A stretch of 64,000 nucleotides of DNA from an uncultured Vicinamibacterales bacterium (GTDB lineage: Bacteria; Acidobacteriota; Vicinamibacteria; Vicinamibacterales; JAKQTR01). Every line of letters begins with the position of its first letter. Position 1 is the first letter of the stretch. Position numbers and translations under genes: made by a program. The notes below the pieces were generated by a model. The model was not told the DNA's origin. It did not search any database and saw nothing but the letters and a program-made list of their open reading frames with translations. Of this stretch, positions 874-16,334 are shown in pieces. The stretch lies in assembly GCA_964547975.1 (NCBI GenBank), contig CAZJRM010000001.1, forward strand, positions 5,774 to 69,773. The letters run 5' to 3'.

Positions 874-2148
874 TCAGAACTTGAAGCCCGCCGTCACATG
901 AACCCGGGCTCCCTTGTCGATGCCGTAGGCCACGTCGAGGTTGAGGCTGACGAGCGGCGCCCGGAGGTACCAGCCTGCGCCGACGCCGTAGTGCCACGTC
1001 GCATCGGCCAGGCGGACGTGCGAGTCGTACACCGCCGCGGCATCGCCGAACAGCGTGAAGCCGCTCTGTCCCAGGCGCATCGGCGAGTGCGTCGGGAGAC
1101 GCAGTTCGACCGACCCGGCCGCGAGCTGATCGCCGACGAACGAACCCGCGCGGAACCCGCGCAGCGTGGCCATGCCGCCGGCCATGGCCTGCTCGTAGGG
1201 CGGCAGCGGGCCGCTGGACGTGTCCGAGACGCCTCGCAGGGCCAGCACGCTCGACCCAAGCAAGCCCAGGTAGGCCTGCGCGTCGACGTGGTATCGGTTC
1301 ACGCGCGGCCCGATCTCGGGCTCGAAGGCGCGCCATCCGGCGTTGATCGCGACGGCGTTGCGCGGAAACGCCGGGTTCTGTCGCGTATCGACGATGAGGC
1401 GGGCTCCGTAGGTGGCAAAGTACTCCTTGCGGTCGCCGAAATGGACGTCCGACCATCCGCCGCCGACGGCCACCTGGACCTGGGGCCGCAGAATCGGCAC
1501 CGCGATTTCCGCCCGCAGCTCCTTCCGCTCGTCGTCGATGTCGAACGCGGGGTTCTCGCGGCTCGACCACGACGCCGCCGCGGTGAGGCGGCTGACCGGG
1601 CCGCGCGGCAGGGTCTTGTCGGCTTCGATGGCGAGCTGCTTGCGGTCGCCCCAGGTGAGCGGTACCGACAGGCGGCCTTCCCGGCCGAGCACGTGGACGA
1701 AACTCGTGCGGACGCCGTACGTGAGACCGTAGCCATCGACGTACTCGAGCGTCGGCGAGAACATCGACGTGTTGATGAACCGCTTCAGCGGGTTGGGCGG
1801 ACCCGTCGGGATGTCGATGCTGATGACGCTGCCGGGGATCTCCTGCACGATGATCACCACGGCGACGGGGCCCGATTCGTCCAGCGTGCGGAACCGGATG
1901 CGGACTTCGACCTGAACGAAGAGGTCGGACTTCTTCACCCGCGCTTCGATGGCCTGCGCGCCTCCGGGCGGCAGCGGCTGACCGACCGCGAGGCCGGACA
2001 GGCGGACGATCTCCGCGTCCGCCGTACGGTAGTTGCCGTGGATACGAACGTCGGCGACGATGGGAGAGGAAGCCGTGACCGGCACCTGCGCGACGGCAAC
2101 GCCCGCGGCCGTCAGCAGCAGCGTCAGGGACAGCACCAGGCGCCTCAT
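874..2148 (-). CDS. BamA/TamA-family Omp85 outer-membrane protein with a single POTRA domain
   Basis: I trimmed the track ORF 874..2433 to the internal ATG at 2148 ([21 protein letters not shown] signal peptide). It has a POTRA-like N-terminus, the L6-loop-type motif GGMATLRGF and a C-terminal ..TAGFKF. The start forms an ATGA overlap with the stop of the upstream gene. Confidence 0.75.
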   Translation of the reverse strand: MRRLVLSLTLLLTAAGVAVAQVPVTASSPIVADVRIHGNYRTADAEIVRLSGLAVGQPLPPGGAQAIEARVKKSDLFVQVEVRIRFRTLDESGPVAVVIIVQEIPGSVISIDIPTGPPNPLKRFINTSMFSPTLEYVDGYGLTYGVRTSFVHVLGREGRLSVPLTWGDRKQLAIEADKTLPRGPVSRLTAAASWSSRENPAFDIDDERKELRAEIAVPILRPQVQVAVGGGWSDVHFGDRKEYFATYGARLIVDTRQNPAFPRNAVAINAGWRAFEPEIGPRVNRYHVDAQAYLGLLGSSVLALRGVSDTSSGPLPPYEQAMAGGMATLRGFRAGSFVGDQLAAGSVELRLPTHSPMRLGQSGFTLFGDAAAVYDSHVRLADATWHYGVGAGWYLRAPLVSLNLDVAYGIDKGARVHVTAGFKF

Positions 2149-3191
2149 GACTGCGGCTCCCGCGGGACGTAGCCGCGAATCTTCGCGCTGACTTCGCCGC
2201 GACGGTAGTCGAAGAAGTCGCGCGAGTAGGTGAAGCGCAACGTGCCCGGCGCGAATGTCACGGCGCCGGTGAAGGTGACGTCCTTCGGCAGCCAGATGCC
2301 CTCGAAGACGCGGCCCATGGTCATGGACGCGCGACCTTCGTCCACGCGGGCAATCTGACGGCCGGGCAGGAACCCCCAGTCCAGGTTGTCGAACGTGAAG
2401 CGGACGATCTGGTATTCCTGCGGATCGATCCACATCGTCACCCGCGACGTCTTGTTCATCGCCCGGTCGATCTTCTCGTCGTCGTCGGGCGCCGGCACTT
2501 CGTTGCCGGGCTTGCGCGGTGGCGACGGTTTGCCCGCGGGTTTCGTTTCCTGAGCCGTCCCGGTCGGGGCCGTCTTCTTCTCGGTCTTCTTCGGCGGATC
2601 GTCGTCGAACATCTTCGACGGGAGGTATTCGATCTTCAGGACCTCGCGGCCATCGAGGCGCTCGCGCCCGGCGAAGTAGTAGTTGCCGGGTTCGAACCTG
2701 AACTTCATGAAGTACGCCTCCGAGATGAAACGCGGTTCGACGCCGGCGCCCGCCAGGCCGCTGAACTGCACGTCGCCGGTGACGGACATGCTGAGTTCGA
2801 CCTTGCGCGTTTCGTCCTTCTCGTTCGCGCGTTGTTCCCGTTTCTTCTCGTCGGCGAGCCAGCGTTCTTCGTACTTCGTCCGTTCCGCCTCGGCGATCTC
2901 GACCCCGTTGGCCTTGACCGGGCTGCGGATCAGGTACCCGTCGCGAATGAACCAGTGGAATTCGCGGCGCAGACCGTGCAGCGGGAATCCGCCGGGGCCC
3001 AGCACCTGAAACGTCTCGCGTTCGCTCAGGATGTAATCGTGCAGCGTACGCCAGTTCTCGTTCCGCTTCTCGAGCACCTTGGCCATGAACGTATCCAGGT
3101 CGTTCGGCATCGGTGGAGGCGCGGGGGCCTGGGCCGCAAGCACGGCCGAGCAGGCCACGACGGACGACAGGACGGCGAGACGGAAGGACAC
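2145..3191 (-). CDS. Secreted hypothetical protein, possibly with a LolA-like / lipoprotein-sorting fold
   Basis: 348-aa ORF with a signal peptide (..CSAVLAAQA) and a Lys/Glu-rich central linker. Its stop overlaps the Omp85 start. The fold assignment is only an impression from the sequence pattern. Confidence 0.5.
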
Positions 3192-3269: not shown

Positions 3270-6200
3270 TCACTCCAGTTCGTCGAGGGCCGCCTCGAAC
3301 GCCTCCGACAGGCGACCGGCATCGGCCCGGGTGACGCACATCGGAGGCTTGATCTTGATCACGTTGTGGAACGGGCCGTCGGTGCTGACGAGCACCCCGC
3401 GGTCGCGCATCCGGTTCACCACCAGGCCGGCTTCGCGGTCGGCCGGCTCGAGCGACGTTCGATCGCGGACGAGTTCCACGCCGACGAACAGGCCCATCCC
3501 GCGCACGTCTCCCACCAGCGGGCGGCGAGTGGCGACGTCCCGGAGCCGCGCCAGGAGGTCGGCGCCGACCACCCGGGCGTTCTCCTGCAGGCCTTCGTCC
3601 CGGATGACGTCCAGGACGGCCAGCCCGACGGCGCACGACACGGGGTTGCCGCCGAAGGTGTTGAAGTACTCCATCCCGTTGGCGAACGCGTCGGCAATCG
3701 CCTTCGTCGTGACCACCACGCCGAGCGGGTGCCCGTTGCCGGCGGGTTTGCCCATCGTGACGATGTCCGGCACGACGTCCTGGGTCTCGAAGGCCCAGAA
3801 GTGAGAGCCAGACCGGCCGAATCCGACCTGCACTTCGTCGGCGATACACACGCCCCCGGCACGGCGCACGGCGTCGTAGCTCGCGGCGAGGTACCCCGGA
3901 GGCAGCACGACCTGTCCTCCGCAGCTCAGGATCGACTCGGCGATGAAGGCCGCCGGGGCCGTGCCCGCCTCGGTCATCCGCGAGATGGCGTCCCCGACAT
4001 GCCGCGCGTACGCGGCGGCGACGCCGGGCCCCCGATAACGGCCGCGGTACGCGTCAGGCATCGGGACCGTGTGTACCCACGGCGGCGCGCCTTGCCCGCC
4101 GGGGCCGTCGAACTTGTACGAACTGATGTCGACGATGGTCGTCGTGTTTCCGTGGTAGCCGACCTCGACGACGATCGTGTCGCGGCGGCCCGTGGCGGCC
4201 CGCGCGAGGCGCAGGGCGAGTTCGTTGGCTTCGCTGCCCGAGTTGACGAAGAAGCAGACCCGCAGCGGGTCGGGCAGCGTGTCGCACAGTCGCTCCGCGT
4301 AGCGGCCGATGGACTCGTGCAGGTACCGCGTGTTCGTGTTGAGGACGGCCATCTGTCGCTGGCCGGCGTCCACGACGCGGGGATGGCAGTGCCCGACGTG
4401 CGGAACGTTGTTGACCGCGTCGAGGTACGCGCGACCGTCCGCGTCGTAGAGGTGCTGCTTCCAGCCTCGGACGATCGTCAGCGGCCGTCGGTACGACACG
4501 CTCAGGGACGGTCCGAGACGGGCCCGCCGCTGTTCCAGCAAATCCGACGGCTCGGCGTAACGCGGGGCCCGGACGCCTTCGGGCAGCAGGGCGACGAGAT
4601 TCGGATCGGGCGACAGGCTCAGCCAGATGTCACGGGCGGCCGGGGTCGCAACGCCGGGGAAGTCGCCCCGGCGCCCGAGCAGGTCGGTGACGATCTGGAA
4701 GTGCAGGTGGGGTGGCCAGCCGCCGTTCTCCGCGGCCTCGCCGACGCGGGCGACACATTCGCCGCGGGCCACGTGACGCCCGGCCGGGAGCGCGGCGAGG
4801 GACTCGCGGGTGAGATGTCCGTAGAGGGTGTAGAAACGCGGACCTCCGTCAGCGGAGGCGTCGTGTTCGAGGATGACGGTGGGGCCGTAGTCGAACGCGC
4901 CTGCGTTGTCGGCCACGCTGTGCACCACGCCGGCGAGCGGCGCCAGCACCGGCGTGCCGGGGGCGGCGAACAGGTCGAGCCCCAGGTGCACGGTGCGCGA
5001 TTCGGGGCCGTCGTGGCCCGCGACCTCGAACACCGCACTCGAGTAGCAGGCACGGACCTCGTCGTAGCGGCCCACGCCGACCGTCGCGCCGGCGTCTTCC
5101 ATGAGGCGCCTGACGTGGCGTGAGAAACGCCCGGCGTCGGACCAGAGATCCGGCGTACCGGCCTCGGCGCTCGAGACGCTCAGGTCGATCACCCGGCGCG
5201 TCACCCGGGCGGGGTCGGGATCCAGCAGCGGGCCGATGTCCGCGCGATGGCCGGCGAGCCACGCGGTGACGCCCGAAGCCACGGGCGATGGCTCGAGACC
5301 GCAGGCATGGCGAAACGTGGCGAGCACGAGGGCCGGCGACAGCGTGTCGAACTGCGCGAGCAACGTCCACGCCGGCTGTTCCGTCACGAACAGGTACGCG
5401 TTGGCCGGGTCGACGTGACGCTGGTGAGCGGCGTTGACGACGCTGACCGACAGCCTCCGGATGACGAGCGGCCAGAGCGCGGCCCGTTCGTCGTCGGTGA
5501 GGGGGCGCGCGGCGTGATATCCCGCGACGATCGCGGCGGCGGCCGTCAGCGGATCGGGCTTGCCGAGCATCGCGTAGGCGATGGCGACGGCGAGTTCGTT
5601 GGCCGTCCACGTGCGCAGCAGGTCGCCGAAATCGATGAGGGCGGCGACGCGCTGCGCGTACGGGTCGGCCGCGTCGACGAGCACGTTGTGGTCGTTCGCG
5701 TCGTTGTAGATGACCGACACCGGCAGGCGGGGCGCGAGTGGCGTCAGCGCACCGTCGCTCCACTCGAACAGGCGTTCGACCAGCGCCCGCCGACCATCGT
5801 CGGTCACCTGCGGGAGGTAGGCGCGGATCCAGCCCGCGCGCCGCGGGTCCCATTTCAGTGAACGGTCGGCCGCCGGATGGTCGAACGACTCGAGCGCCCG
5901 ATCGAGCCGCCCGAGCACCTCGCCGAGGCCGCGGAGGAGGGCCGGAGAGTGCGGCCGGCATGCGGCGAGCGTCCGGCCGGCGACGTAGGTCAGGAGACGC
6001 ACCGTGTGCGCCCGGCCCGACGGGTCCTGCGCGGTGGTCGACGTCGCACCGCCCGCGGTGAGGACGAGGCGCGGCAGTGCCAGGTCGGGCGTCGTGCGCT
6101 CGAGATGCAGGAGCGCCTCCGTCTGCAGATCGAGCACCGCCGCGTCTTCGGTCGCGTTGGCGATCTTCAGGACGAACTGCCGGCCGTTGACCGCGTCGAT

Positions 6201-6326
6201 GCGGAAGTTCTGATCACGCTCGCTCGGCAGCGGCCGGGCCGTGCCGTCGATGGCGAAATGTTCGTGAACCAGCCGGGCGGCGTCGTGCTCGGTGAAGCGC
6301 GAGCGGGCGAAGGTGATGTCGACCAT
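3270..6326 (-). CDS. Three-domain fusion: APH-type kinase + M23 metallopeptidase-like domain + class-III PLP aminotransferase/phospho-lyase-like domain
   Basis: 1018-aa ORF. The N-terminus has kinase motifs ([20 protein letters not shown]). The centre has M23 motifs (HLGLDLFA.., [11 protein letters not shown]). The C-terminus has class-III aminotransferase motifs ([40 protein letters not shown]). Confidence 0.85.
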
Positions 6327-6430
6327 GCTGAAGCTCTCCTGCGCGTGACAGGGATCGCCGTACCAGTGTAATCCTCCAATGCGCTATGCTTCGAACCTGA
6401 GCGGTGTTCTCTCTTCGCGGGAGACCAGTC

Positions 6431-7735
6431 ATGCGTATGTGGCTCGCAGGCGTCGTCGCTGTGATCCTGGCGTCGAGCGTCGAGGGGCCGTTCGCGGCGG
6501 ACGCCCCGGCGGACCTCGCCGGCCGGGTCGAGGCCTACGTGGGACCGTACGCCCGGACGAACAATTTCAGCGGCTGCGTCCTCGTGGCCACCGGGGATGT
6601 CGTGAACGCCCGGCAGTGCTGGGGGATGGCCAACGACGAACACCGGGTTCCGAACACCCCCCGGACACGATTCCACATCGCGTCGGTGTCGAAGTCGTTC
6701 ACGGCGGCCGCCATCCTCCGCCTCGCAGACGCGGGGCGGCTGTCTGTCGACCAGCCCGTGGCGAGCGTGCTGCCCGGTTATCCGCGGGGCGAGACGATCA
6801 CGATCCACGACCTGCTCGCGCACCGATCGGGGATCCCGAACGTCAATGACCTCCCCGACTACGACCGGCGCTCCCGCGAGTCGTGGACGCCGTCCGAGAT
6901 CGTCTCGTGGTTCCAGGACCTGCCGCTCGAGTTCGAGCCCGGCTCGAGGTACCGCTACAGCAACTCGAACTACAACCTGCTGGCGCACATCATCGAGCGG
7001 GTGACGGGCCAGCGCTACGGTTCGTACCTGAGTGCGCAGGTGTTCCATCCCGCCGGACTGCGGGAGACCGGGCACGATGGACGGCCGCAGGACCTCGTGG
7101 CGAATCGTGCGGCCGGGTACCTCCCGGTCGACCTCGACGCGTTCGAAAACGCGCCGTACCTCGACTGGACCATCAAGACCGGGAACGGGTCGTTGTATTC
7201 CACCGTGGACGACCTGCACCGATGGGTGCAGGCGCTGGTCGGTGGACGGGTGCTGAGCGCCGCGTCCACCGCGAAGATGTTTGCCGACCATCGCGACGGC
7301 GCCGGCTACGGGTGGTCGGTGCGCGGCGGCGATCGCCCGTCCGCCTCCGTGACCGGGCGGTCGCCCGGATTCTCGTCCAGCGTCGAGTACTTCACCGGGT
7401 CGCGCGTGACCGTGGTGGTGACTGCCAACCTCTATTCGAGCATCGCGCAGACGATTGCCGCCGACCTCGGGGCGATCGCGCACGGAGAGGCACGCCGCGC
7501 GCTGGTGCCTGAGACGGCGATCCGGCTGGACCCGGCCGTGGCGGCACGGTTCGTGGGACGCTGGCAGTTCGGGCCCGACTTCTCGTACAACCCGAACATG
7601 CTGGCCACCGTGCGGATCCAGGACGGCGCCCTGACGATGGAGGGCAGCGGGGGCGCGGGCACTGCCTTCCTGATCCCGATTGGTGCCAACCGGTTCGTGG
7701 ACCGGCTCTACGGGAACGGTCCGGTTCGTCGTTGA
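6431..7735 (+). CDS. Serine hydrolase, beta-lactamase/PBP-like (class C family), apparently truncated by a frameshift
   Basis: SxxK motif (ASVSKSF), YxN-like YSNSNY, and a signal peptide. The start is ATG 6431, preceded by GGGAGA. The C-terminus continues in the +1 frame (see next feature). Confidence 0.75.
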   Translation: MRMWLAGVVAVILASSVEGPFAADAPADLAGRVEAYVGPYARTNNFSGCVLVATGDVVNARQCWGMANDEHRVPNTPRTRFHIASVSKSFTAAAILRLADAGRLSVDQPVASVLPGYPRGETITIHDLLAHRSGIPNVNDLPDYDRRSRESWTPSEIVSWFQDLPLEFEPGSRYRYSNSNYNLLAHIIERVTGQRYGSYLSAQVFHPAGLRETGHDGRPQDLVANRAAGYLPVDLDAFENAPYLDWTIKTGNGSLYSTVDDLHRWVQALVGGRVLSAASTAKMFADHRDGAGYGWSVRGGDRPSASVTGRSPGFSSSVEYFTGSRVTVVVTANLYSSIAQTIAADLGAIAHGEARRALVPETAIRLDPAVAARFVGRWQFGPDFSYNPNMLATVRIQDGALTMEGSGGAGTAFLIPIGANRFVDRLYGNGPVRR

Positions 7736-7856
7736 CGGGACCGGCCAGGCCACGGCGCTGGTCTGGAACTTCGGAACGGATTTCGTCGCCCGGCGGGCGG
7801 ACGGTTCGGAGTCCGCGTCGGCTCCGGTCCCGCGTGCTACGATTCCTGAACGATGA
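7722..7856 (+). other. Out-of-frame C-terminal continuation of the serine-hydrolase gene (44 codons + TGA)
   Basis: The +1 frame from 7722 reads RFVVDGTGQATALVWNFGTDFVARRADGSESASAPVPRATIPER*. Its TGA (7854-7856) forms an ATGA overlap with the ATG of the next gene (7853). Confidence 0.6.
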
Positions 7857-8293
7857 CACCAGCTGATGACGCCGTCGAACTCTTCCAGAACGGGTGTGCG
7901 TGTTCTCAGGCCGTGCTCGGGGCGTTCGCGCCGCGGTTCGGGATGGACACCGGGCAGGCGCTGCGCGTGTCCACGTGTTTTGCCGGAGGCATGCGCCGCG
8001 CCGAAACCTGCGGGGCCGTGACCGGCGCGCTGATGGTGATCGGCCTGGCGACGGCGGGGGACGAATGCCGGACCGCCGACGGCCGCGGGCCGGCGTACTC
8101 CGCGGCTGCGACCTTCGCCGATGCGTTCCGGCAGGCGCACGGCGCCCTCGAATGCCGCACGTTGCTCGGGTGTGACGTGTCCACCGAGGAGGGCAAACGG
8201 ATCGCTGCGGAGCGGAATCTCACGAAGACCCTCTGCCCGGAGTTCGTACGCTTCGCCGCGGAGTGGCTCGACCGGTCGCTGCCCGGGGAATAG
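7853..8293 (+). CDS. C_GCAxxG_C_C family (putative redox-active) protein
   Basis: 146-aa ORF with NGCACSQAVLGAF and further conserved Cys (CFAGGM..ETCGAV, ECRTLLGC, LCPEF). Confidence 0.7.
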   Translation: MTPADDAVELFQNGCACSQAVLGAFAPRFGMDTGQALRVSTCFAGGMRRAETCGAVTGALMVIGLATAGDECRTADGRGPAYSAAATFADAFRQAHGALECRTLLGCDVSTEEGKRIAAERNLTKTLCPEFVRFAAEWLDRSLPGE

Positions 8294-8305
8294 CGGGGAG
8301 GCGCG

Positions 8306-8962
8306 ATGCGCACGCTCGGACATCTGTTCGACAACAATCGCGCGTGGGCCGCCGCCATGACCGGGGAAGATCCGCAGTTCTTCGCCCGGTTATCGGCCAC
8401 CCAGACGCCGCGGTACCTGTGGATTGGCTGCTCCGACAGCCGCGTGCCCGCCAACGAAATCGTCGGGCTGCTGCCCGGCGAACTCTTCGTCCACCGGAAT
8501 GTCGCGAACGTCGTCGTGCACGCGGACCTGAACTGCCTGTCGGCCATTCAGTACGCGGTCGACGTGCTCGAGGTCGGTCACATCATCGTGTGCGGCCACG
8601 ACGGATGCGGTGGAGTGCTCGCGGCCCTGCGAGACGACCGGATCGGGCTCGCCGACAACTGGCTCCGACACGTGCAGGATGTCCGCTGGAAACACCGCGC
8701 CCAGCTCGAAGCGCTCGCGACCGAGCGCGAACGGCACGGGCGGCTGTGCGCGTTGAACGTGATCGAGCAGGTCGTCAACGTCAGCCAGACCACCGTGGTC
8801 CGCGAGGCGTGGGCTCGCGGGGCGTCCGTGGCCGTTCACGGGTGGATCTACAGCCTGCAGGACGGCCTGCTGCGAGACCTCGGGATGTGTGTGACGGGCG
8901 AGTCGGAGATTGCGGCATGCGCCGATGCCGCGCTGACCACCCTCGCGCGCCCCGCTGTGTAA
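8306..8962 (+). CDS. can: Beta-class carbonic anhydrase
   Basis: WIGCSDSRVP, FVHRNVANVV and VCGHDGCGGV zinc-ligand motifs. SD GGGGAGG lies upstream. Confidence 0.9.
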   Translation: MRTLGHLFDNNRAWAAAMTGEDPQFFARLSATQTPRYLWIGCSDSRVPANEIVGLLPGELFVHRNVANVVVHADLNCLSAIQYAVDVLEVGHIIVCGHDGCGGVLAALRDDRIGLADNWLRHVQDVRWKHRAQLEALATERERHGRLCALNVIEQVVNVSQTTVVREAWARGASVAVHGWIYSLQDGLLRDLGMCVTGESEIAACADAALTTLARPAV

Positions 8963-8997
8963 CGGTCCGGCGTGGCGGGCGCCAGGGCGGCCGATCG

Positions 8998-9666
8998 ATG
9001 AGACGGAGTGATGGCATGGGCAATCGGTGGCGGACGGCGGGTCTTCTGGCGCTCTGTCTCGCCGCGCCGGCATCGGCAGCGGCGCAGGAGGCCCCCATCG
9101 TCGTGCATGCGGCCGGCGTCGTGACGGCTCCGTTGTCGGGCACGGCCGACCACTTCAATCCCGGGCTCGGCGCGGCCGCCGGCGTCACTTGGAACTTCGC
9201 CGAATACTGGGGAGCGCGGGCCGACCTGGCCTGGTCCCGGCTGTCGGCGAAAGACGTGCCCGCGTCGATTGGCGCGCCGCTCGATGTGAGCGGCCACGTC
9301 GGGTACGCGACGGCGGACATCGTGTTTCGCGGGCAGCCCGGGGCGGCGCGGATCTACGTGCTGGCCGGCGTCGGGCTCTATCGGAGGGCGGTGAGCCTGT
9401 CCGGGAGCGGCAGCGGCCAGGTCAACGTGTGCAACCCCTGGTGGTTCGTCTGCGAGACGAAGGGTGTTCCTCTCGCGCGGGTGACAGGAGGAAGATCGAC
9501 GACCGACGTCGGCATCAACGTCGGGTTCGGCGCGACGTTCCTCCGCGATCGGGTGTTTGCCGAAGTGCGATTCCACTACGCGACCGGGCCGACCTACGAC
9601 ACGCCGCAGGGCGAGCAGATTGCGTCGGGGAAGTTCCTGCCGCTGATGGTGGGAGTGCGGTTCTAG
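8998..9666 (+). CDS. Secreted outer-membrane beta-barrel protein
   Basis: I trimmed the track ORF 8263..9666 to ATG 8998. It has a signal peptide (LLALCLAAPASAAAQ), a beta-strand pattern and a terminal ..MVGVRF. Confidence 0.6.
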   Translation: MRRSDGMGNRWRTAGLLALCLAAPASAAAQEAPIVVHAAGVVTAPLSGTADHFNPGLGAAAGVTWNFAEYWGARADLAWSRLSAKDVPASIGAPLDVSGHVGYATADIVFRGQPGAARIYVLAGVGLYRRAVSLSGSGSGQVNVCNPWWFVCETKGVPLARVTGGRSTTDVGINVGFGATFLRDRVFAEVRFHYATGPTYDTPQGEQIASGKFLPLMVGVRF

Positions 9667-9683
9667 GCGTGCCGGGCCTGGCT

Positions 9684-9710
9684 CGGGGGCTGGCTGAAGC
9701 CAGCCCCCAC
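9684..9710 (-). repeat. REP-like hairpin copy R1 (10-bp stem GGGGGCTGGC / 4-nt loop / GCCAGCCCCC, flank CGTGG on the minus strand)
   Basis: A perfect inverted repeat read directly from the sequence. It is intergenic, and the same architecture occurs at five other sites. Confidence 0.8.
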
Positions 9711-9748
9711 GATGCAGGCCGGGGGCCGAGAGCCGGATTGGAGCACGC

Positions 9749-10534
9749 GTGGCTGACGGATGGAAGGGCTGGGACGACTACGCGGCGTTCTACGACTGGG
9801 AGAACGCGCAGACGATGGGCCGGCGGGACGTCCGGTTCTGGGAGACTCTCGCCCGGCGAACCGGCGGCCACATCCTCGAACTGGGGTGCGGGACCGGGCG
9901 GATCACGCTGCCGCTGGCCCGGACGGGCGCGCGCGTCGTGGGAATCGACCGATCCGAGTCGATGCTCGCCCGGGCACACGAGCGCGTCAGGCGTTCGCGG
10001 TTGCCCGGCCGGCCTGGCCTCGTGCGCGGTGATATCACCGCCTTGCCGTTTCCCTCGTCGAGTTTCGACCTCGTGGCCGCGCCGTACGGCATCCTGCAGT
10101 CGTTGCTCGACGACCGCGTGCTGACGGCGACGTTGGCCTCGGTGGCTCGTGTGCTGAAGCCGGGCGCCACGTTTGGAATCGACCTGGTTTCGGACCTGCC
10201 GGCGTGGCAGGAGTACGAAAACCGCACCAAACTGCAGGGCACACGCGGAACCGGCCGCAACCAGGTCCGGATCACGCTGGTCGAGTCCGTCCGTCAGCAG
10301 CGCCGGAAGGGCCTGACCACGTTCGACCAGGAGTTCATCGAGCGTCGGGGCCGAGAGACGCGGCGGCATCGGTTCACGCTGTCATTCCGGACCCTGTCGG
10401 TCGAAGACATGGCGTCGCGGTTGGAGCGGGCCGGATTCCGTGTGAAAGCGGTGCTGGGCGATTACCGTGGCGGCGCGTGGGACGACCGCGCCGACGTCTG
10501 GCTGATCCTCGCCGAACGCCGCTGCCCCGCGTGA
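9749..10534 (+). CDS. Class I SAM-dependent methyltransferase
   Basis: Motif I ILELGCGTGRIT, plus the post-I and motif II/III pattern. GTG start preceded by TGGAG. Confidence 0.8.
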   Translation: MADGWKGWDDYAAFYDWENAQTMGRRDVRFWETLARRTGGHILELGCGTGRITLPLARTGARVVGIDRSESMLARAHERVRRSRLPGRPGLVRGDITALPFPSSSFDLVAAPYGILQSLLDDRVLTATLASVARVLKPGATFGIDLVSDLPAWQEYENRTKLQGTRGTGRNQVRITLVESVRQQRRKGLTTFDQEFIERRGRETRRHRFTLSFRTLSVEDMASRLERAGFRVKAVLGDYRGGAWDDRADVWLILAERRCPA

Positions 10535-10538
10535 CCCG

Positions 10539-10558
10539 AGGGTCAGGCCCCTTTTCTC
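10539..10558 (+). terminator. Weak hairpin + CCCCTTTTCTC tail immediately after the stop codon
   Basis: AGGG/CCCT stem followed by a T-run. The CCCCTTT(T)CT motif recurs after three + strand stops. Confidence 0.3.
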
Positions 10559-10588
10559 ATCTTCGTCTCATTTTGGGGAGAACCGTCC

Positions 10589-10891
10589 GTGAAGGTCCTG
10601 ATCGACATCTCCGTCGTGCCCATCGGCGTTGGGCTGTCACTCTCGAAGTACGTGGCCGCCTGCGAGCGCATCTTCGCCGACGCCGGGTTGACGACGCGTC
10701 TCCACGCCTACGGGACGAACGTCGAAGGTGAATGGGATCAAGTGTTTGCAGCGGTCAAGCGCTGTCACGAGGTCCTGCACGACATGGGAGCCCCGCGTCT
10801 CTCGACGGTGATCAAGGCCGGCACCAGGACCGACAGGTCCCAAACGCTGGACGACAAGGTTCAGAGCGTCGAGGCGAAGCTCCGGGGGTGA
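10589..10891 (+). CDS. MTH1187/YkoF-family (DUF77) thiamine-binding-like protein
   Basis: 100-aa ORF. MKVLIDISVVPIGVG..YVAAC..L..HAYGTNVEGEW matches the family pattern. Confidence 0.7.
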   Translation: MKVLIDISVVPIGVGLSLSKYVAACERIFADAGLTTRLHAYGTNVEGEWDQVFAAVKRCHEVLHDMGAPRLSTVIKAGTRTDRSQTLDDKVQSVEAKLRG

Positions 10892-10908
10892 CCCCTGACC
10901 CCTTTCTC
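10885..10908 (+). terminator. GGGG-TGA-CCCC mini-hairpin + CCCCTTTCTC tail
   Basis: The stop codon sits in the loop, and the motif is shared with 10548-10558 and 17449-17503. Confidence 0.3.
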
Positions 10909-11045
10909 CACCCAACCCGAGACGGGTCGCGGGTGTCTCACATAGCGGTCAACTCGCGCGGAACCAGCGCGTGTCCCCCGGCCAAGTCGGGACGGGCCGC
11001 TGGCTCGGGATTTGCTGCCATCCCAGCGGAGGTCGGAGGAGCATC

Positions 11046-11786
11046 ATGCGCAGACGTTCCCTGCTGTACGGCGTGGCGTTCGTCCTGTTGTGGCACGGTC
11101 TTGCCGCTGCGCAGCAGTGGCCGGCGTCGGCGCTCGCGCTCCGCACGAATGGCGGCGCGCTGAAGTCCGGCGACTGCGTCCGGTTGACCCTCGTGGCGAC
11201 CGAGGACGTGCCCGGTCCCCTCACGCCAACGGTGTCCTACGCCTTCGACCAGTCCGTGACGGTCGAGGACGAGGAGGGGCGCCGGACCCAGACAACGCGC
11301 CGGGCTACGGTCGAACGGCGCGCTGGCCCGGCCTTCGATCGCCTCATGGCCGGCAGTTCTCTCGTCCTGGACGACGCGTTCTGTTTCGGCCAGGACAGCC
11401 GGCCCGGGGTGTACGACATCTCGGTTCACCTCACGACCTCGGCGGTGCCGGTGGCGAGATTGACGACGTGTGTCAGTGTTTTCGCCGACGAGGCCACCTC
11501 GTCGGACGGGTGCGGCTTCGCCCTCCGAGGTGTCCTTCGCCGCGACGGCGACACGGTCGTCCTTGACGCGCCCGGCGGCGGCGGCGTGTTGTCGCGGGTG
11601 CTCGTCTTTCGCGGGGACGCGTTGTTGAAGGTCGTCGATCATGGCATCGCGGCCTCCGGCCCGGGTGAACTCGTCGCGCCCGCGTCGGTCTTCGACCCGC
11701 TGGGCTCGGCGCCCGTGGACCTGGTGCTGCAGGACCAGTCGGGGAACCGGTCGGCCAGCGTGGTCCGGGTGACGATCCCGCGTTGA
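11046..11786 (+). CDS. Secreted hypothetical protein
   Basis: I trimmed the track ORF to ATG 11046 (MRRRSLLYGVAFVLLWHGLAAAQQ signal peptide). I recognise no motif. Confidence 0.5.
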   Translation: MRRRSLLYGVAFVLLWHGLAAAQQWPASALALRTNGGALKSGDCVRLTLVATEDVPGPLTPTVSYAFDQSVTVEDEEGRRTQTTRRATVERRAGPAFDRLMAGSSLVLDDAFCFGQDSRPGVYDISVHLTTSAVPVARLTTCVSVFADEATSSDGCGFALRGVLRRDGDTVVLDAPGGGGVLSRVLVFRGDALLKVVDHGIAASGPGELVAPASVFDPLGSAPVDLVLQDQSGNRSASVVRVTIPR

Positions 11787-11855
11787 CGTCTTCCGAGGTT
11801 CGTTTCGCTGGCGTCGGTCGTGGGGTAGACTGTGGGCTCACACTCAGGAGCCCCG

Positions 11856-12302
11856 ATGTCTCTGCCGGAGCGCCGCCGCGCGAACTACTGGTTCGTCACC
11901 GCTTGTGTGCTGCTGTTGTTGACCGGGTTGGCGCATTCGCTCGGCCATTTCGCTGAGCCGCCGGCGGATCCTGAGACCGTGGGGCTGATCTCGGCCCTGC
12001 GCGGGTACCGGGTCCAGATGCCAGACGCGGGGCTCGGCCTGGCGCCCACCCAATGGGACGTCCACCAATCGCTGTCGCTGACGATGAGCGTCAGCCTGTT
12101 CTGGCTGGCGGTCGTGGGACTGGTGGTCGCGTTTTCCGACATGGGGCGGCGCACGGTCCAGCGTGTCACGGCGGTCTACATCCTGGCGAACGGCGTTCTT
12201 GCGGGCCTGTTTCTCTACTACAACCTGGCGCTGCCGTTTCTCTCGCTTGGACTCGTGGAACTGGTCCTGGTGACCGCCTACGCGCGCGCCCCGAGGGGCT
12301 GA
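11856..12302 (+). CDS. Hypothetical integral membrane protein (about 4 TM)
   Basis: ATG 11856 is preceded by AGGAG. Hydrophobic segments are present (YWFVTACVLLLLTGLAHSLGHF etc.). Confidence 0.5.
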   Translation: MSLPERRRANYWFVTACVLLLLTGLAHSLGHFAEPPADPETVGLISALRGYRVQMPDAGLGLAPTQWDVHQSLSLTMSVSLFWLAVVGLVVAFSDMGRRTVQRVTAVYILANGVLAGLFLYYNLALPFLSLGLVELVLVTAYARAPRG

Positions 12303-12323
12303 CGCGGGCCCGGGCCATCCAAG

Positions 12324-12353
12324 TTGTTGTCCCTAAAGCCGATATGGTAGGAT
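12324..12353 (+). promoter_or_regulatory. Candidate sigma70-type promoter for yebC-ruvCAB (TTGTTG-18-TAGGAT)
   Basis: The only AT-richer stretch upstream of yebC. The hexamers were read by eye. Confidence 0.3.
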
Positions 12354-12404
12354 TTTCAGGCACTTTTTCGCCCGAATTCCCTCTGAACAGCCTGGAGTTT
12401 CACC

Positions 12405-13151
12405 ATGTCTGGCCATTCAAAGTGGCACACCATCAAGCACAAGAAAGGCGCTGCCGACGCCAAGCGCGGCCGTGTCTTCACCCGGATCATCAAGGAACTG
12501 ACCGTGGCCGCCCGCGCCGGCGGCGGTGACCCGGAAACCAACCCGCGCCTGCGCACGATCGTGGCGGAGGCGAAGCAGGTCAACATGCCCGCCGACAACA
12601 TCAAGCGGGCCATTCGTCGGGGCACCGGTGAAGAGCCTGGCGTCCAGTACGAAGAAGTGACCTACGAAGGGTACGGTCCGGGCGGCGTGGCCTTGATGAT
12701 CGAGGCGATGACGGACAACAAGAACCGCACGGTGGGTGAGATCCGGCATCTGCTCGGCAAGTACGGCGGGAACCTGGGCGAAACCAACAGCGTGCGCCGC
12801 ATGTTCGACAAGAAGGGCTACATCGTCATCGAGAAGGCGAAGGCCTCCGAAGACACCCTGATGAACGCGGTGCTCGATGCCGGTGCGGACGACCTCGTGG
12901 ACGACGGCGACAGCTGGGAAGTGCTGAGCGCGCCGGACGCGTACCCGGCCGTCAAGGAAGCCATCGACAAGCTCGGCATCGAGACGCTCGAGGCACGCGT
13001 GTCCATGCTGCCGAACCTCACGGTGCCGCTGGAAGGCAAACCCGCGCAGAGCTGCCTCAAGCTGCTCGACATGCTCGAGGACCACGACGACGTCCAGCAC
13101 GTGTGGTCGAACGCCGACATCCCCGAGAAGGAGATCGAGGCGTTCGAGTGA
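12405..13151 (+). CDS. yebC: YebC/PmpR-family transcriptional regulator
   Basis: MSGHSKWHTIKHKKGAADAKRG.. N-terminus and full-length family pattern. Confidence 0.95.
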   Translation: MSGHSKWHTIKHKKGAADAKRGRVFTRIIKELTVAARAGGGDPETNPRLRTIVAEAKQVNMPADNIKRAIRRGTGEEPGVQYEEVTYEGYGPGGVALMIEAMTDNKNRTVGEIRHLLGKYGGNLGETNSVRRMFDKKGYIVIEKAKASEDTLMNAVLDAGADDLVDDGDSWEVLSAPDAYPAVKEAIDKLGIETLEARVSMLPNLTVPLEGKPAQSCLKLLDMLEDHDDVQHVWSNADIPEKEIEAFE

Positions 13152-13696
13152 AGGTGTTCGGGATAGATCCGGGTTCCGAGCGCACGGGATACGGCTGCAT
13201 CGAGACCGACGGCAGCCGTCACCGGCTGGTCGTCTGCGGGGCGGTGACGACATCGCCCCGCTCGTCGTTTCCGGACAAACTTCTCGTCATCCACCAGGCC
13301 CTGCGCCGGTTGCTCGCTGAGCATCGGCCCGACTGCGTGGCGGTGGAGAACGTGTTCTACGCGAAGAACGTGCGTAGCGCGCTGAAACTGGGGCACGCCC
13401 GCGGGATCGCGCTGCTGGCGGCGGTCGAGGGCGGCTATCCGCTGTTCGAATACACGCCGGCGGAGATCAAGCGAACGGTCGTCGGCTACGGCCGCGCAGA
13501 GAAACCGCAGGTGGGGGAGATGGTGCGGCTGATGCTGGGCCTCGACGCGGCGCCAACGCCGCACGACGCGTCGGACGCGCTCGCGGCGGCCATCTGCCAC
13601 GTGCACAGCACCCACGGCCTGGCGCAGGCGGCCCTGGCCGAGGCCGCGCGGGGCGCACGCAAGGCGCCGAAGAGCTGGCGCGAGTACCGGCCATGA
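13148..13696 (+). CDS. ruvC: Holliday junction resolvase RuvC
   Basis: GTG start at 13148 (GTGA overlap with the yebC stop). VFGIDPGSERTGYG and the conserved acidic catalytic pattern are present. Confidence 0.9.
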   Translation: MKVFGIDPGSERTGYGCIETDGSRHRLVVCGAVTTSPRSSFPDKLLVIHQALRRLLAEHRPDCVAVENVFYAKNVRSALKLGHARGIALLAAVEGGYPLFEYTPAEIKRTVVGYGRAEKPQVGEMVRLMLGLDAAPTPHDASDALAAAICHVHSTHGLAQAALAEAARGARKAPKSWREYRP

Positions 13697-14298
13697 TTGC
13701 CTCCCTGCGCGGGCGCCTCGCCGACAAGCAGCCGAACCGCCTGGTGGTGGACGTGAACGGCGTGGGCTACGAGGTGTTCGTCCCGCTGTCGACGTTCTAC
13801 CGCGTGGCGGACGTCGGCCAGGACGTGTCGCTGCTCGTGCACACGCACGTGCGCGAAGACACGTTGGCGCTGTATGGGTTCGGGACGTCGTTCGAGCAGC
13901 AGGTGTTCGAGCGGCTGATTGGCGTCAGCGGCATCGGTCCGCGCCTGGCGCTTGCGGTCCTGTCCGGCATCGAAGCCGGCGACTTCGTCCGGTCGGTGCA
14001 GACGGGCGATCTGGCGCGGCTTACGGCGATTCCGGGCGTCGGCAAGAAGACGGCCGAGCGCATGGTGCTCGAACTCAAGGACCGCCTGCCGCTCGGCGGC
14101 GCGCCCGGGCCGACGGCGGGGCCGGAAGACGGCGCACCCGCGGACGCCCTGCGGCGCGACCTGCTCTCGGCGCTGTTGAACCTGGGGTATCATCGCCCCC
14201 TCGCCGAGAAGGCCGTGGATGGGGCGCTCAAGCGCGCGGAGTCGCCGAGCTTCGAGACGGTGCTCAAGCAGGCGCTGCGCGACCTGGCGCGCGGATAA
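13693..14298 (+). CDS. ruvA: Holliday junction branch-migration complex subunit RuvA
   Basis: MIASLRGRL..VDVNGVGYEV, HhH motifs (IPGVGKKTAERM). ATGA overlap with ruvC. Confidence 0.95.
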   Translation: MIASLRGRLADKQPNRLVVDVNGVGYEVFVPLSTFYRVADVGQDVSLLVHTHVREDTLALYGFGTSFEQQVFERLIGVSGIGPRLALAVLSGIEAGDFVRSVQTGDLARLTAIPGVGKKTAERMVLELKDRLPLGGAPGPTAGPEDGAPADALRRDLLSALLNLGYHRPLAEKAVDGALKRAESPSFETVLKQALRDLARG

Positions 14299-14310
14299 CG
14301 GACAGGGAAC

Positions 14311-15333
14311 GTGGACGACGACGACCGACTGGTGACGCCGACGCGCGCGGACGACGACGCGCAGTACGAGGCGGGGCTGCGGCCCCGGACGCTCGACGAG
14401 TACATCGGGCAGGACCGCGTCCGCGAGAACCTCCACGTGTCGATTACCGCCGCCGTGCAGCGCCGCGAAGCGCTCGACCACGTGCTGCTCTACGGGCCGC
14501 CCGGCCTCGGCAAGACGACGCTGGCCTACGTCATCGGCAACGAACTGGGCGTGTCGGTGCGGTCCACGTCGGGCCCGGTGCTGGAGAAACCCGGCGATCT
14601 CGCGGCCATCCTGACGAACCTCAAGGAGCGCGAGGTCCTCTTCATCGACGAAATCCACCGGATGGCGCCGACGATCGAAGAGATCCTCTACCCGGCGCTC
14701 GAGGACTACGAACTCGACATCGTCATCGGCCAGGGGCCGGCGGCGCGTTCGGTGAAGGTGCCGCTGCAGAAGTTCACGCTCATCGGTGCGACGACGCGCG
14801 CGGGGCTGCTGACCTCGCCGCTGCGCAGCCGCTTCGGAATCGTGCACCGGCTGGATTTCTACACGAACCAGGACCTCGAGGAAATCGTGCGACGCTCGGC
14901 GCGGATCCTCGGTGTGCCCATCAGCGACGAGGCCGCGGGCGAGATCGCGCGCCGTTCGCGCGGGACCCCGCGTATCACGAACCGCCTGCTGCGCCGCGTG
15001 CGCGACTACGCGCAGGTGCGCGCGTCCGGGGACATCACCACCGAGGCGACGCGCGCGGCGCTCACGATGCTCGAGGTCGACGAGCACGGGTTCGACGAAA
15101 TCGACCGGCGGCTGCTGAGGACCATCATCGACAAGTTCGGCGGCGGGCCCGTCGGCGTCAATACGATCGCGGCGGCGATCAGCGAAGAGAAAGACGCCAT
15201 CGAGGACATCTACGAGCCGTTCCTCATTCAAATCGGGTTTCTCGATCGGACGCCACGGGGCCGGGTGGCCACGGCGCGTGCGTATCAGTTCTTCGGGTTG
15301 AAAGCCCCAGGGAAGGATTCGAGACTGTGGTAA
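14311..15333 (+). CDS. ruvB: Holliday junction DNA helicase RuvB
   Basis: Walker [12 protein letters not shown], Walker B LFIDEIHR, sensor motifs. Confidence 0.95.
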
Positions 15334-16334
15334 ACGCAAGACAGGTTCGACCGACACGGATCAGCGCGCTCGCGACCTACGTGCCGCCGGGCATCCTCGA
15401 CAATCACATGCTCAGCCAGATGGTCGAGACCACCGACGAGTGGATTCTGCAGCGGACCGGCATCAAGACGCGGCACATCGCCGAGAAGGGCGTGGGCACG
15501 TCCGAGCTGGCCGCCGAGGCGGCGAAGCGGGCCATCGCGCAGCGCGGCATCTCGCCGACCGCCATCGACCTGGTCATCGTCGGCACGACGACGCCGGACA
15601 TGATGTTTCCGAGCACGGCCGCGCTCGTGCAGGACAAGATCGGAGCGAAGACGTGCTGGGGGTTCGACCTCGCCGCCGCGTGCTCCGGGTTCACGTTCTC
15701 GCTGGCGGCAGCCAGCCAGATGGTGGCGACGGGCACCCACAACTGCGCGCTCGTCATCGGCGCGGACGTCATGTCGAGCATCATCGACTACACGGACCGC
15801 ACCACGTGCGTCCTGTTCGGTGACGGCGCCGGCGCCGTGCTCGTGGAACCCGCGGTCGAGGACGGCCTCGAGATCATCGACTTCGCCAACACGATCGACG
15901 GCAGCGGGCGCGATGCGCTCCAGATGCCGGGCGGCGGCAGCCTCCACCCCGCGTCTCACGAGACCGTCGACAAGAAGCTGCACTACATCCGGCAAGACGG
16001 CCAGGCTGTCTTCAAGTTCGCCGTCCGCAACACCGAGGAGATCAGCCGCACCATCATGGAGCGGAATCACGTCACGGCCGAGGACATCGCGATGTTCGTG
16101 TCGCATCAGGCCAACCGGCGCATCATCATGTCGGCGGCCGACCGTCTCGGGTTCCCCGAGTCGAAGGTGATGCTGAACATCGCCGACTACGGCAACACGA
16201 CGGCGGCGACGATTCCGCTGGCGCTCAACGACGCGCTGGCGCAGGGCCGGATCAAGAAGGGCGACCTCGTGCTGTTGACATCGGTGGGAGCCGGCTTCAC
16301 GGTCGGGTCCGTGTTGCTGCGCTGGGCGTTCTAG
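15327..16334 (+). CDS. fabH: 3-oxoacyl-ACP synthase III (FabH)
   Basis: TSDEWI-like [12 protein letters not shown], active-site Cys in AAACSGF, HQAN, GNTTAAT. The start is uncertain (GTG 15327 overlaps the ruvB end). Confidence 0.9.

Follow-up and report, generated by a model that had tools for sequence, protein, structure and literature searches.

A gene for a protein of 1018 amino acids (aa), located in a 64,000-nucleotide stretch of DNA from an uncultured Vicinamibacterales bacterium (contig CAZJRM010000001.1, positions 5,774 to 69,773; the whole of this stretch is referred to as the window), probably encodes a cytoplasmic catabolic enzyme in which a kinase and a phospho-lyase are bridged by an M23 peptidase-type domain on a single polypeptide, with a hydroxylysine-like compound as the leading candidate substrate. 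The order of the two chemical steps, kinase and then phospho-lyase, is well supported on comparative grounds, because the homology of the lyase domain, the existence of gene fusions and the recurrent pairing of kinases with lyases all point to it. The M23 domain is at least a scaffold and, judging from the conservation of its residues, is probably catalytic in the family to which the protein belongs.

Domain architecture and family membership

The gene occupies positions 3270..6326 of the minus strand, with its stop codon at 3270-3272 and an ATG start that has a Shine-Dalgarno-like AGGAG ~9-13 nucleotides (nt) on its 5' side; the G+C content of the window is ~68-70%. A preliminary description, prepared from the letters of the window alone, had reported a 1018-aa open reading frame (ORF) at 3270-6326 without giving its strand, and the ORF call bears this out. 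The motifs which that description attributed to an APH-type kinase, to an M23 zinc peptidase (HLGLD, HLHFQ) and to a class-III enzyme dependent on pyridoxal phosphate (PLP; TMGKP) are all present, and the three corresponding Pfam domains exceed their gathering cut-offs: APH at residues 30-277 (76.3 bits, cut-off 23.2, E 3.9e-21), Peptidase_M23 at residues 446-546 (57.8 bits, cut-off 28.7) and Aminotran_3 at residues 615-1014 (254.1 bits, cut-off 30.5, E 2.6e-75). The motifs are found at residues 208 (NDANDHN), 231 (IDFGD), 446 (VHLGLD), 502 (YGHL), 540 (HLHFQ) and 857 (TMGKP). YGHL, which had not been listed before, is a further canonical M23 motif. The features of the gene are the following.

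3270..6326, minus strand: whole gene, NCBIfam NF004799 (PRK06148) family (ORF, full-length match to the hidden Markov model (HMM), AlphaFold2 (AF2) model)
5292..6326, minus strand: N-terminal small-molecule kinase domain, residues 1-345 (Pfam APH 30-277, nt 5496-6239)
6165-6167 (K54), 5700-5702 (D209), 5685-5687 (N214) and 5631-5633 (D232), minus strand: kinase catalytic residues, from conservation
4527..5291, minus strand: middle domain, residues 346-600 (M23 core in Pfam 446-546, nt 4689-4991)
4986-4988 (H447), 4974-4976 (D451) and 4701-4703 (H542), minus strand: predicted zinc ligands of the middle domain, from the M23 alignment
4815-4817 (H504) and 4707-4709 (H540), minus strand: predicted catalytic histidines of the middle domain, from the M23 alignment
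3285..4484, minus strand: C-terminal class-III-fold PLP domain, phospho-lyase subgroup (Pfam 615-1014)
3747-3749 (PLP lysine K860) and 3837-3839 (D830), minus strand: residues of the PLP domain, from conservation

The protein matches the HMM of NF004799 (PRK06148) with 1281.7 bits against a curated cut-off of 1128, residues 1-1016 covering positions 1-1010 of a model of 1015. It has the domain order and the length (~1015 aa) of that family, with no architectural difference. Against the model of NF004800 (PRK06149), an actinobacterial sister family, it obtains 861.9 bits, below the curated cut-off of 973, and its middle region alone matches that model weakly (35.6 bits). By these matches the protein is an ordinary member of PRK06148, and its architecture is already catalogued rather than new; the annotation text of NF004799 reads 'hypothetical protein' or 'aminotransferase class III-fold PLP-dependent enzyme'. 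AF2 predicts that the complete chain folds into one compact body, with a pLDDT of 87.7 and a pTM of 0.87.

Phospho-lyase and kinase domains

As judged by homology, the C-terminal domain is specifically of the phospho-lyase type and not a generic class-III enzyme, since two characterized phospho-lyases of solved structure stand far ahead of its other class-III relatives. The best PDB match is the human ethanolamine-phosphate phospho-lyase ETNPPL (6tor), with an E-value of 2.3e-141 and, in Foldseek, 52% identity and a TM-score of 0.92; the second best is A1RDF1 of Arthrobacter (5g4i), with an E-value of 5.7e-97, 42% identity and a TM-score of 0.91. The Foldseek ranking agrees with the sequence search in placing these two at the top. 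The best match outside the lyases, dialkylglycine decarboxylase, reaches an E-value of about 1e-58, and every other class-III enzyme, all transaminases included, lies at 3e-58 or weaker. The Schiff-base lysine K860 and the PLP-pyridine aspartate D830 are invariant among the homologues.

Automatic annotation labels such proteins 'aminotransferase class III-fold PLP-dependent enzyme' or '4-aminobutyrate aminotransferase-like', which would suit an ordinary omega-transaminase joined to a functionally unrelated kinase, with no consecutive chemistry. We regard this as very improbable, given that, by E-value, ETNPPL lies over 80 orders of magnitude nearer to the domain than any transaminase does, and given that the linkage of kinase and lyase is kept in three independent gene arrangements. 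A1RDF1 of Arthrobacter aurescens (5g4i/5g4j) is a bacterial class-III-fold phospho-lyase, but one that stands alone as a protein of 446 aa, with neither kinase nor M23 domain.

The kinase domain gave no meaningful match to PDB sequences, and its relatives were obtained through fold comparison alone. The comparison places it near small-molecule hydroxyl kinases, namely homoserine kinase II (2ppq), amicoumacin kinase (6sui) and aminopropanol kinase (6ef6), the last with the best TM-score (0.72/0.75) at 18% sequence identity; the model of the domain has a pLDDT of 92.3. The residue set of APH kinases (the adenosine triphosphate (ATP) lysine, the catalytic Asp, the Mg-binding Asn and the DFG-like Asp) is present, and K54, D209, N214 and D232 are invariant in the homologues, save for one K54R in each of two sets. 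The aminopropanol kinase 6ef6, from the Mycobacterium/Rhodococcus microcompartment (RMM), resembles the fusion in that an amino-alcohol kinase of the APH fold has a PLP enzyme of the class-III fold as its partner, and its locus also encodes a class-III aminotransferase-like enzyme (PMC4207490). It differs in its separate genes, its microcompartment context, its lack of an M23 domain and its low identity.

Kinases and lyases are associated in other forms as well. Separate, overlapping genes for the two lie on a Rhodococcus plasmid, adjacent genes are found in 39 Klebsiella plasmid records and in at least one E. coli plasmid record, and Pannonibacter has an 801-aa fusion of kinase and lyase without M23. 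In the annotation of one source, an actinobacterial relative is labelled 'hydroxylysine kinase / 5-phosphonooxy-L-lysine phospho-lyase'. The proposal of the preliminary description, that an amino-alcohol is phosphorylated and then undergoes elimination, gains support from the homology to 6tor and 5g4i, from this recurrent pairing and from the label of that one relative. The fusion would work like the animal hydroxylysine kinase HYKK (AGPHD1) with the 5-phosphohydroxylysine phospho-lyase PHYKPL (AGXT2L2) or with ETNPPL (AGXT2L1), and like the bacterial pairs of amino-alcohol kinase and phospho-lyase; the animal enzymes perform the two chemistries that are predicted for the fusion, but as separate proteins without M23.

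Among the two-gene forms, that of the Klebsiella pneumoniae IncF plasmid NZ_CP016160.1 (48628-55933, L086) consists of a phosphotransferase gene and a class-III 'aminotransferase' gene, accompanied by a lysine/arginine/ornithine (LAO)-type ATP-binding cassette (ABC) transporter, a GntR regulator and an EamA exporter. The region looks like a mobile catabolic module in clinical isolates.

In the abstract of Veiga-da-Cunha et al. from 2012, bacterial bi- and trifunctional fusions of such a lyase with an APH-type kinase are reportedly what prompted the identification of the animal enzymes. The preliminary description, which argued from the animal enzymes to the bacterial fusion, is sound in its logic, yet it reverses an argument that had reportedly been published before. 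In passages of two other papers, the 2012 work on the animal enzymes is cited as a case of gene fusion revealing enzyme function (PMC12138971) and as an identification assisted by comparative genomics (PMC5714238).

Distribution of the three-domain form

The three-domain fusion is real, ancient and very widespread, with homologues in Acidobacteriota, Alphaproteobacteria and Asgard archaea among others. How common it is had been put forward as a check in the preliminary description, and the answer is a catalogued family with 2,623 homologues at E <= 1e-20 in the protein database search and at least 583 loci in a genome scan that considered one genome per species. Of the best 120 homologues, 118 are ~1020 aa long, and the precomputed Pfam annotation gives the three domains for almost all. 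The architecture of the genome loci was inspected in the best 80, where all complete copies are three-domain proteins of 1007-1128 aa; these 80 loci span Acidobacteriota, Chloroflexota, Gemmatimonadota, Bacteroidota, Desulfobacterota, Latescibacterota and Thor-/Promethearchaeota. The nearest genome relatives come from metagenome-assembled genomes (MAGs) of Vicinamibacterales (Acidobacteriota). Members of PRK06148 also occur on pSymB of S. meliloti, on a Shinella plasmid and on other rhizobial replicons, with the same Pfam domains in the pSymB and Shinella proteins. When the middle domain alone was used as query, 505 clusters (50% identity) were matched at E <= 1e-30, many of them represented by entries below full length, and most matches begin near residue 340. 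An assembly artefact or a chance ORF as the source of the fusion was rejected, given that the same architecture is present in the best homologues and in genome loci of many phyla.

Six loci from MAGs of Thorarchaeota and Promethearchaeota (L042, L043, L051, L055, L058 and L075) contain full-length three-domain copies with ~40% identity over residues 1-600. The HxH motif of M23 is intact in all six, and the copies that were aligned have the complete catalytic set. These copies suggest either inter-domain transfer or contamination of the MAGs. Two seemingly split copies (L078:9974-12871 and L048:9992-13182) were considered as genuine genes for kinase and M23 only and were rejected, as they run over 2-3 frames in long-read MAGs; their breaks are probably sequencing frameshifts.

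The M23 domain

Classical M23 enzymes are secreted or periplasmic hydrolases of peptidoglycan or of glycyl bonds. Unlike these, the M23 domain of the fusion sits between two domains that need a nucleotide triphosphate and PLP, and is therefore presumably cytoplasmic. Its HxxxD, xxHL and HxH motifs match those of the LytM/lysostaphin-type metallopeptidases residue for residue, and H447, D451, H504, H540 and H542 align with the motifs of the solved M23 peptidases 2hsi, 9gy1 and 9m7n. By analogy with LytM and lysostaphin, H447, D451 and H542 would bind zinc, while H504 and H540 would be catalytic.

The preliminary description had suggested verifying whether the M23 ligands are retained across homologues. 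They are intact in PRK06148, but not in the sister family PRK06149. In PRK06148, the set of five residues (HDHHH) is found in 120/120 close homologues (with two exceptions at H504), in 78/78 full-length proteins from genome loci and rhizobia (with one His504→Arg), and in 146 of 150 cluster representatives, which were gathered without any motif filter. The mean column identity is 0.73 in the M23 domain versus 0.66 in the kinase domain, and 32 of 130 M23 positions are conserved in at least 98% of the sequences.

PRK06149 (NF004800, ~970 aa), annotated as 'aminotransferase', shares the kinase-spacer-phospho-lyase layout of the fusion and conserves the kinase and PLP residues, but its middle domain is ~60 residues shorter, has no Pfam M23 match and has lost the five catalytic residues. 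The sample of this family consisted of a protein from a Streptomyces plasmid (L084:6944-9904), which obtains 1317 bits with the PRK06149 model (cut-off 973), and of 120 further clusters (P0271-P0390). The catalytic set is intact in 0/118 proteins, and the kinase and PLP residues are conserved in 117/118. PRK06149 thus constitutes a natural dead-domain control. Given that the set is lost there while the kinase and PLP residues are kept, the M23 domain is, on this comparison, dispensable for the two-step kinase/lyase chemistry. Given also that the middle domain is retained even when catalytically dead, a scaffold role is suggested.

One could go further and consider PRK06148 itself bifunctional, with kinase and phospho-lyase as its only activities and with M23 as a scaffold or spacer whose zinc site serves folding stability or docking. 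The shortened and inactivated middle domain of PRK06149 is in favor of this explanation, as are the two-domain and two-gene forms that exist without M23, and the single compact body predicted by AF2 (pTM 0.87) would fit a packing role. However, His504 and His540 are by analogy with LytM/lysostaphin catalytic and not ligands, so that a zinc site of purely structural use could do without them, yet both are invariant across Acidobacteriota, Asgard archaea and rhizobia. In addition, conservation is higher in the M23 domain than in the kinase domain, and a quarter or so of the M23 positions (32/130) are at or above the 98% level. A purely structural M23 domain is therefore considered rather unlikely in PRK06148. 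Since H504 and H540, which by analogy do not bind zinc, are strictly retained, we argue for real catalysis by M23 in this family, in addition to a role as scaffold.

Substrate clues from gene neighborhoods

A hydroxylysine-like substrate is the single most likely option, with a chance that we place slightly below even, and it is inferred from scattered gene neighborhoods. In several independent lineages, the genes around the fusion gene concern hydroxylated or basic amino acids. A 4-hydroxyproline epimerase gene is near it in Rhodothermales (L030:936-11050) and in Saprospiraceae (L035:4665-19053), with 597.7 and 609.8 bits, respectively, against a cut-off of 376. Both clusters include a gene of the D-amino-acid dehydrogenase family, and a gene of the ornithine-cyclodeaminase family is located just upstream; the latter gene of L035 scores as a pyrroline-2-carboxylate/piperideine-2-carboxylate (Pyr2C/Pip2C) reductase (410.9 bits, cut-off 322), and the L035 cluster also has a DapA-family protein and an aldehyde dehydrogenase. 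From their gene content, the surroundings at these two MAG loci of Bacteroidota/Rhodothermota type look like 4-hydroxyproline catabolic clusters. L030 also contains an S9 dipeptidyl-peptidase-like gene and a gene for a PLP enzyme that resembles GntC/VioD, of a type whose known substrates include hydroxy-arginine.

In L089, a Pro_racemase-family gene follows the fusion gene at a distance of 18 nt, and in L067 (Gemmatimonadota) another one is close by. In Latescibacterota, the fusion gene converges on genes for a PhyH-family dioxygenase and an L-piperideine-6-carboxylate dehydrogenase (772.9 bits, cut-off 730). The latter enzyme uses 2-aminoadipate semialdehyde, which is the product of 5-phosphohydroxylysine phospho-lyase. 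In rhizobia, the fusion gene is flanked by genes for amino-acid ABC transporters and for a regulator of the Lrp/AsnC type, and the LAO-type ABC transporter beside the two-gene form of Klebsiella is a further hint of this kind.

Among solved structures, those nearest to the lyase domain, 6tor and 5g4i, are of enzymes that act on phosphoethanolamine, the kinase that superposes best is 6ef6, the aminopropanol kinase of a microcompartment, and at one locus the gene is adjoined by an OpuAC-type transporter. These observations would agree with a simple amino-alcohol as the substrate, namely ethanolamine or 1-amino-2-propanol, with acetaldehyde or propanal as the product, as in the classical route of bacteria through an amino-alcohol kinase and an O-phosphate phospho-lyase. 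Yet the survey of flanking ORFs presents no recurring ethanolamine-utilization, aldehyde/alcohol dehydrogenase or microcompartment neighbors, and the contexts that are informative concern amino-acid transport and the catabolism of hydroxyproline and lysine. Moreover, structure comparison leans towards ethanolamine enzymes because the hydroxylysine-specific enzymes have no solved structure. Hence, a simple amino-alcohol appears quite unlikely as the substrate, and a hydroxylysine-like compound is preferred.

Several observations weigh against a hydroxylysine-directed enzyme with a working M23 domain. There is no universal neighbor: the 248 nearest flanking ORFs, from ~70 loci, match more than 120 Pfam families, none of them present in more than 6 loci. 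The transporter at one locus is, as mentioned, of the OpuAC (quaternary-amine) type instead, and the neighbors within the window are unrelated (a beta-lactamase-family protein, a secreted protein and an Omp85 protein). The M23 domain is absent from the two-domain and two-gene kinase/lyase forms, and its catalytic set is lost in all 118 actinobacterial PRK06149 proteins examined. Finally, the searched literature holds no enzyme assay of any bacterial member of the fusion family, and searches on the bacterial fusion or its M23 domain, on PRK06148/PRK06149, on A1RDF1 and on bacterial hydroxylysine catabolism returned nothing relevant.

A universally conserved operon partner was also considered and rejected, as the all-versus-all clustering of flanking ORFs yielded antisense artefacts and lineage-restricted neighbors.

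Surroundings of the gene in the window

The other genes near the fusion gene in the window are the following.

2145..3191, minus strand: gene for a 348-aa secreted protein, possibly co-transcribed with the fusion gene (downstream position)
6404-7735, plus strand: secreted serine hydrolase of the beta-lactamase family, in divergent orientation to the fusion gene
8306-8962, plus strand: beta-carbonic anhydrase, near the fusion gene
9749-10534, plus strand: class-I methyltransferase, near the fusion gene
12405-16334: YebC-, RuvA-, RuvB- and FabH-like genes, housekeeping context

The 348-aa secreted protein has no Pfam match, and an Omp85-family gene lies downstream of its gene, at 874-2433 on the minus strand. 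The same downstream block is found in a 65%-identical relative (L091): a homologue of the 348-aa protein (56% identical), whose gene overlaps the stop of the fusion gene by 4 nt, is followed by a POTRA-Omp85 gene. In the window, there is no terminator-like site between 3270 and 3191, and the 348-aa protein gene is possibly co-transcribed with the fusion gene. On the other side, the context from 6404 to 16334 is ordinary housekeeping and is syntenic with L091.

Proposed mechanism and implications

By homology, the N-terminal APH-fold kinase would phosphorylate the hydroxyl of a vicinal amino-alcohol, and the C-terminal PLP domain would then eliminate phosphate and ammonia to give a carbonyl compound. 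The most likely class of substrate, as suggested by the scattered neighborhoods, would be a basic hydroxy-amino acid such as 5-hydroxylysine, converted to 2-aminoadipate semialdehyde. The M23 domain would form the physical bridge between the two outer catalytic domains and, with its complete predicted catalytic set, would most likely add a hydrolytic step. The nature of this step is the least certain part of the scheme: it may release the amino-alcohol from an N-acyl conjugate or from a small peptide, perhaps one that contains glycine.

A more specific proposal is that M23 acts as a cytoplasmic zinc amidase or peptidase that frees a hydroxylysine-type amino-alcohol from imported small peptides or N-acyl conjugates. 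We offer this tentatively, as a somewhat doubtful possibility. If it is true, glycine-flanked hydroxylysine peptides from collagen-like proteins would be candidate substrates of M23, hydrolysis, phosphorylation and phospho-elimination would take place in sequence on one polypeptide, and the resulting 2-aminoadipate semialdehyde would enter lysine catabolism beside hydroxyproline degradation.

Similar reasoning from gene fusions has already served to assign the animal enzymes, and the remaining interest is in the strictly conserved active site of a cytoplasmic M23 domain. The puzzle is that a domain of the peptidoglycan-hydrolase type, with a perfect catalytic set, is maintained within a metabolic enzyme of the cytoplasm in groups as far apart as Acidobacteriota, rhizobia and Asgard archaea, whereas the sister family let its M23 domain die and retained it as a spacer. 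An answer would give a substrate and a pathway to more than 500 sequence clusters that are annotated merely as 'aminotransferase', and it might define a bacterial route of hydroxylysine breakdown next to hydroxyproline catabolism.

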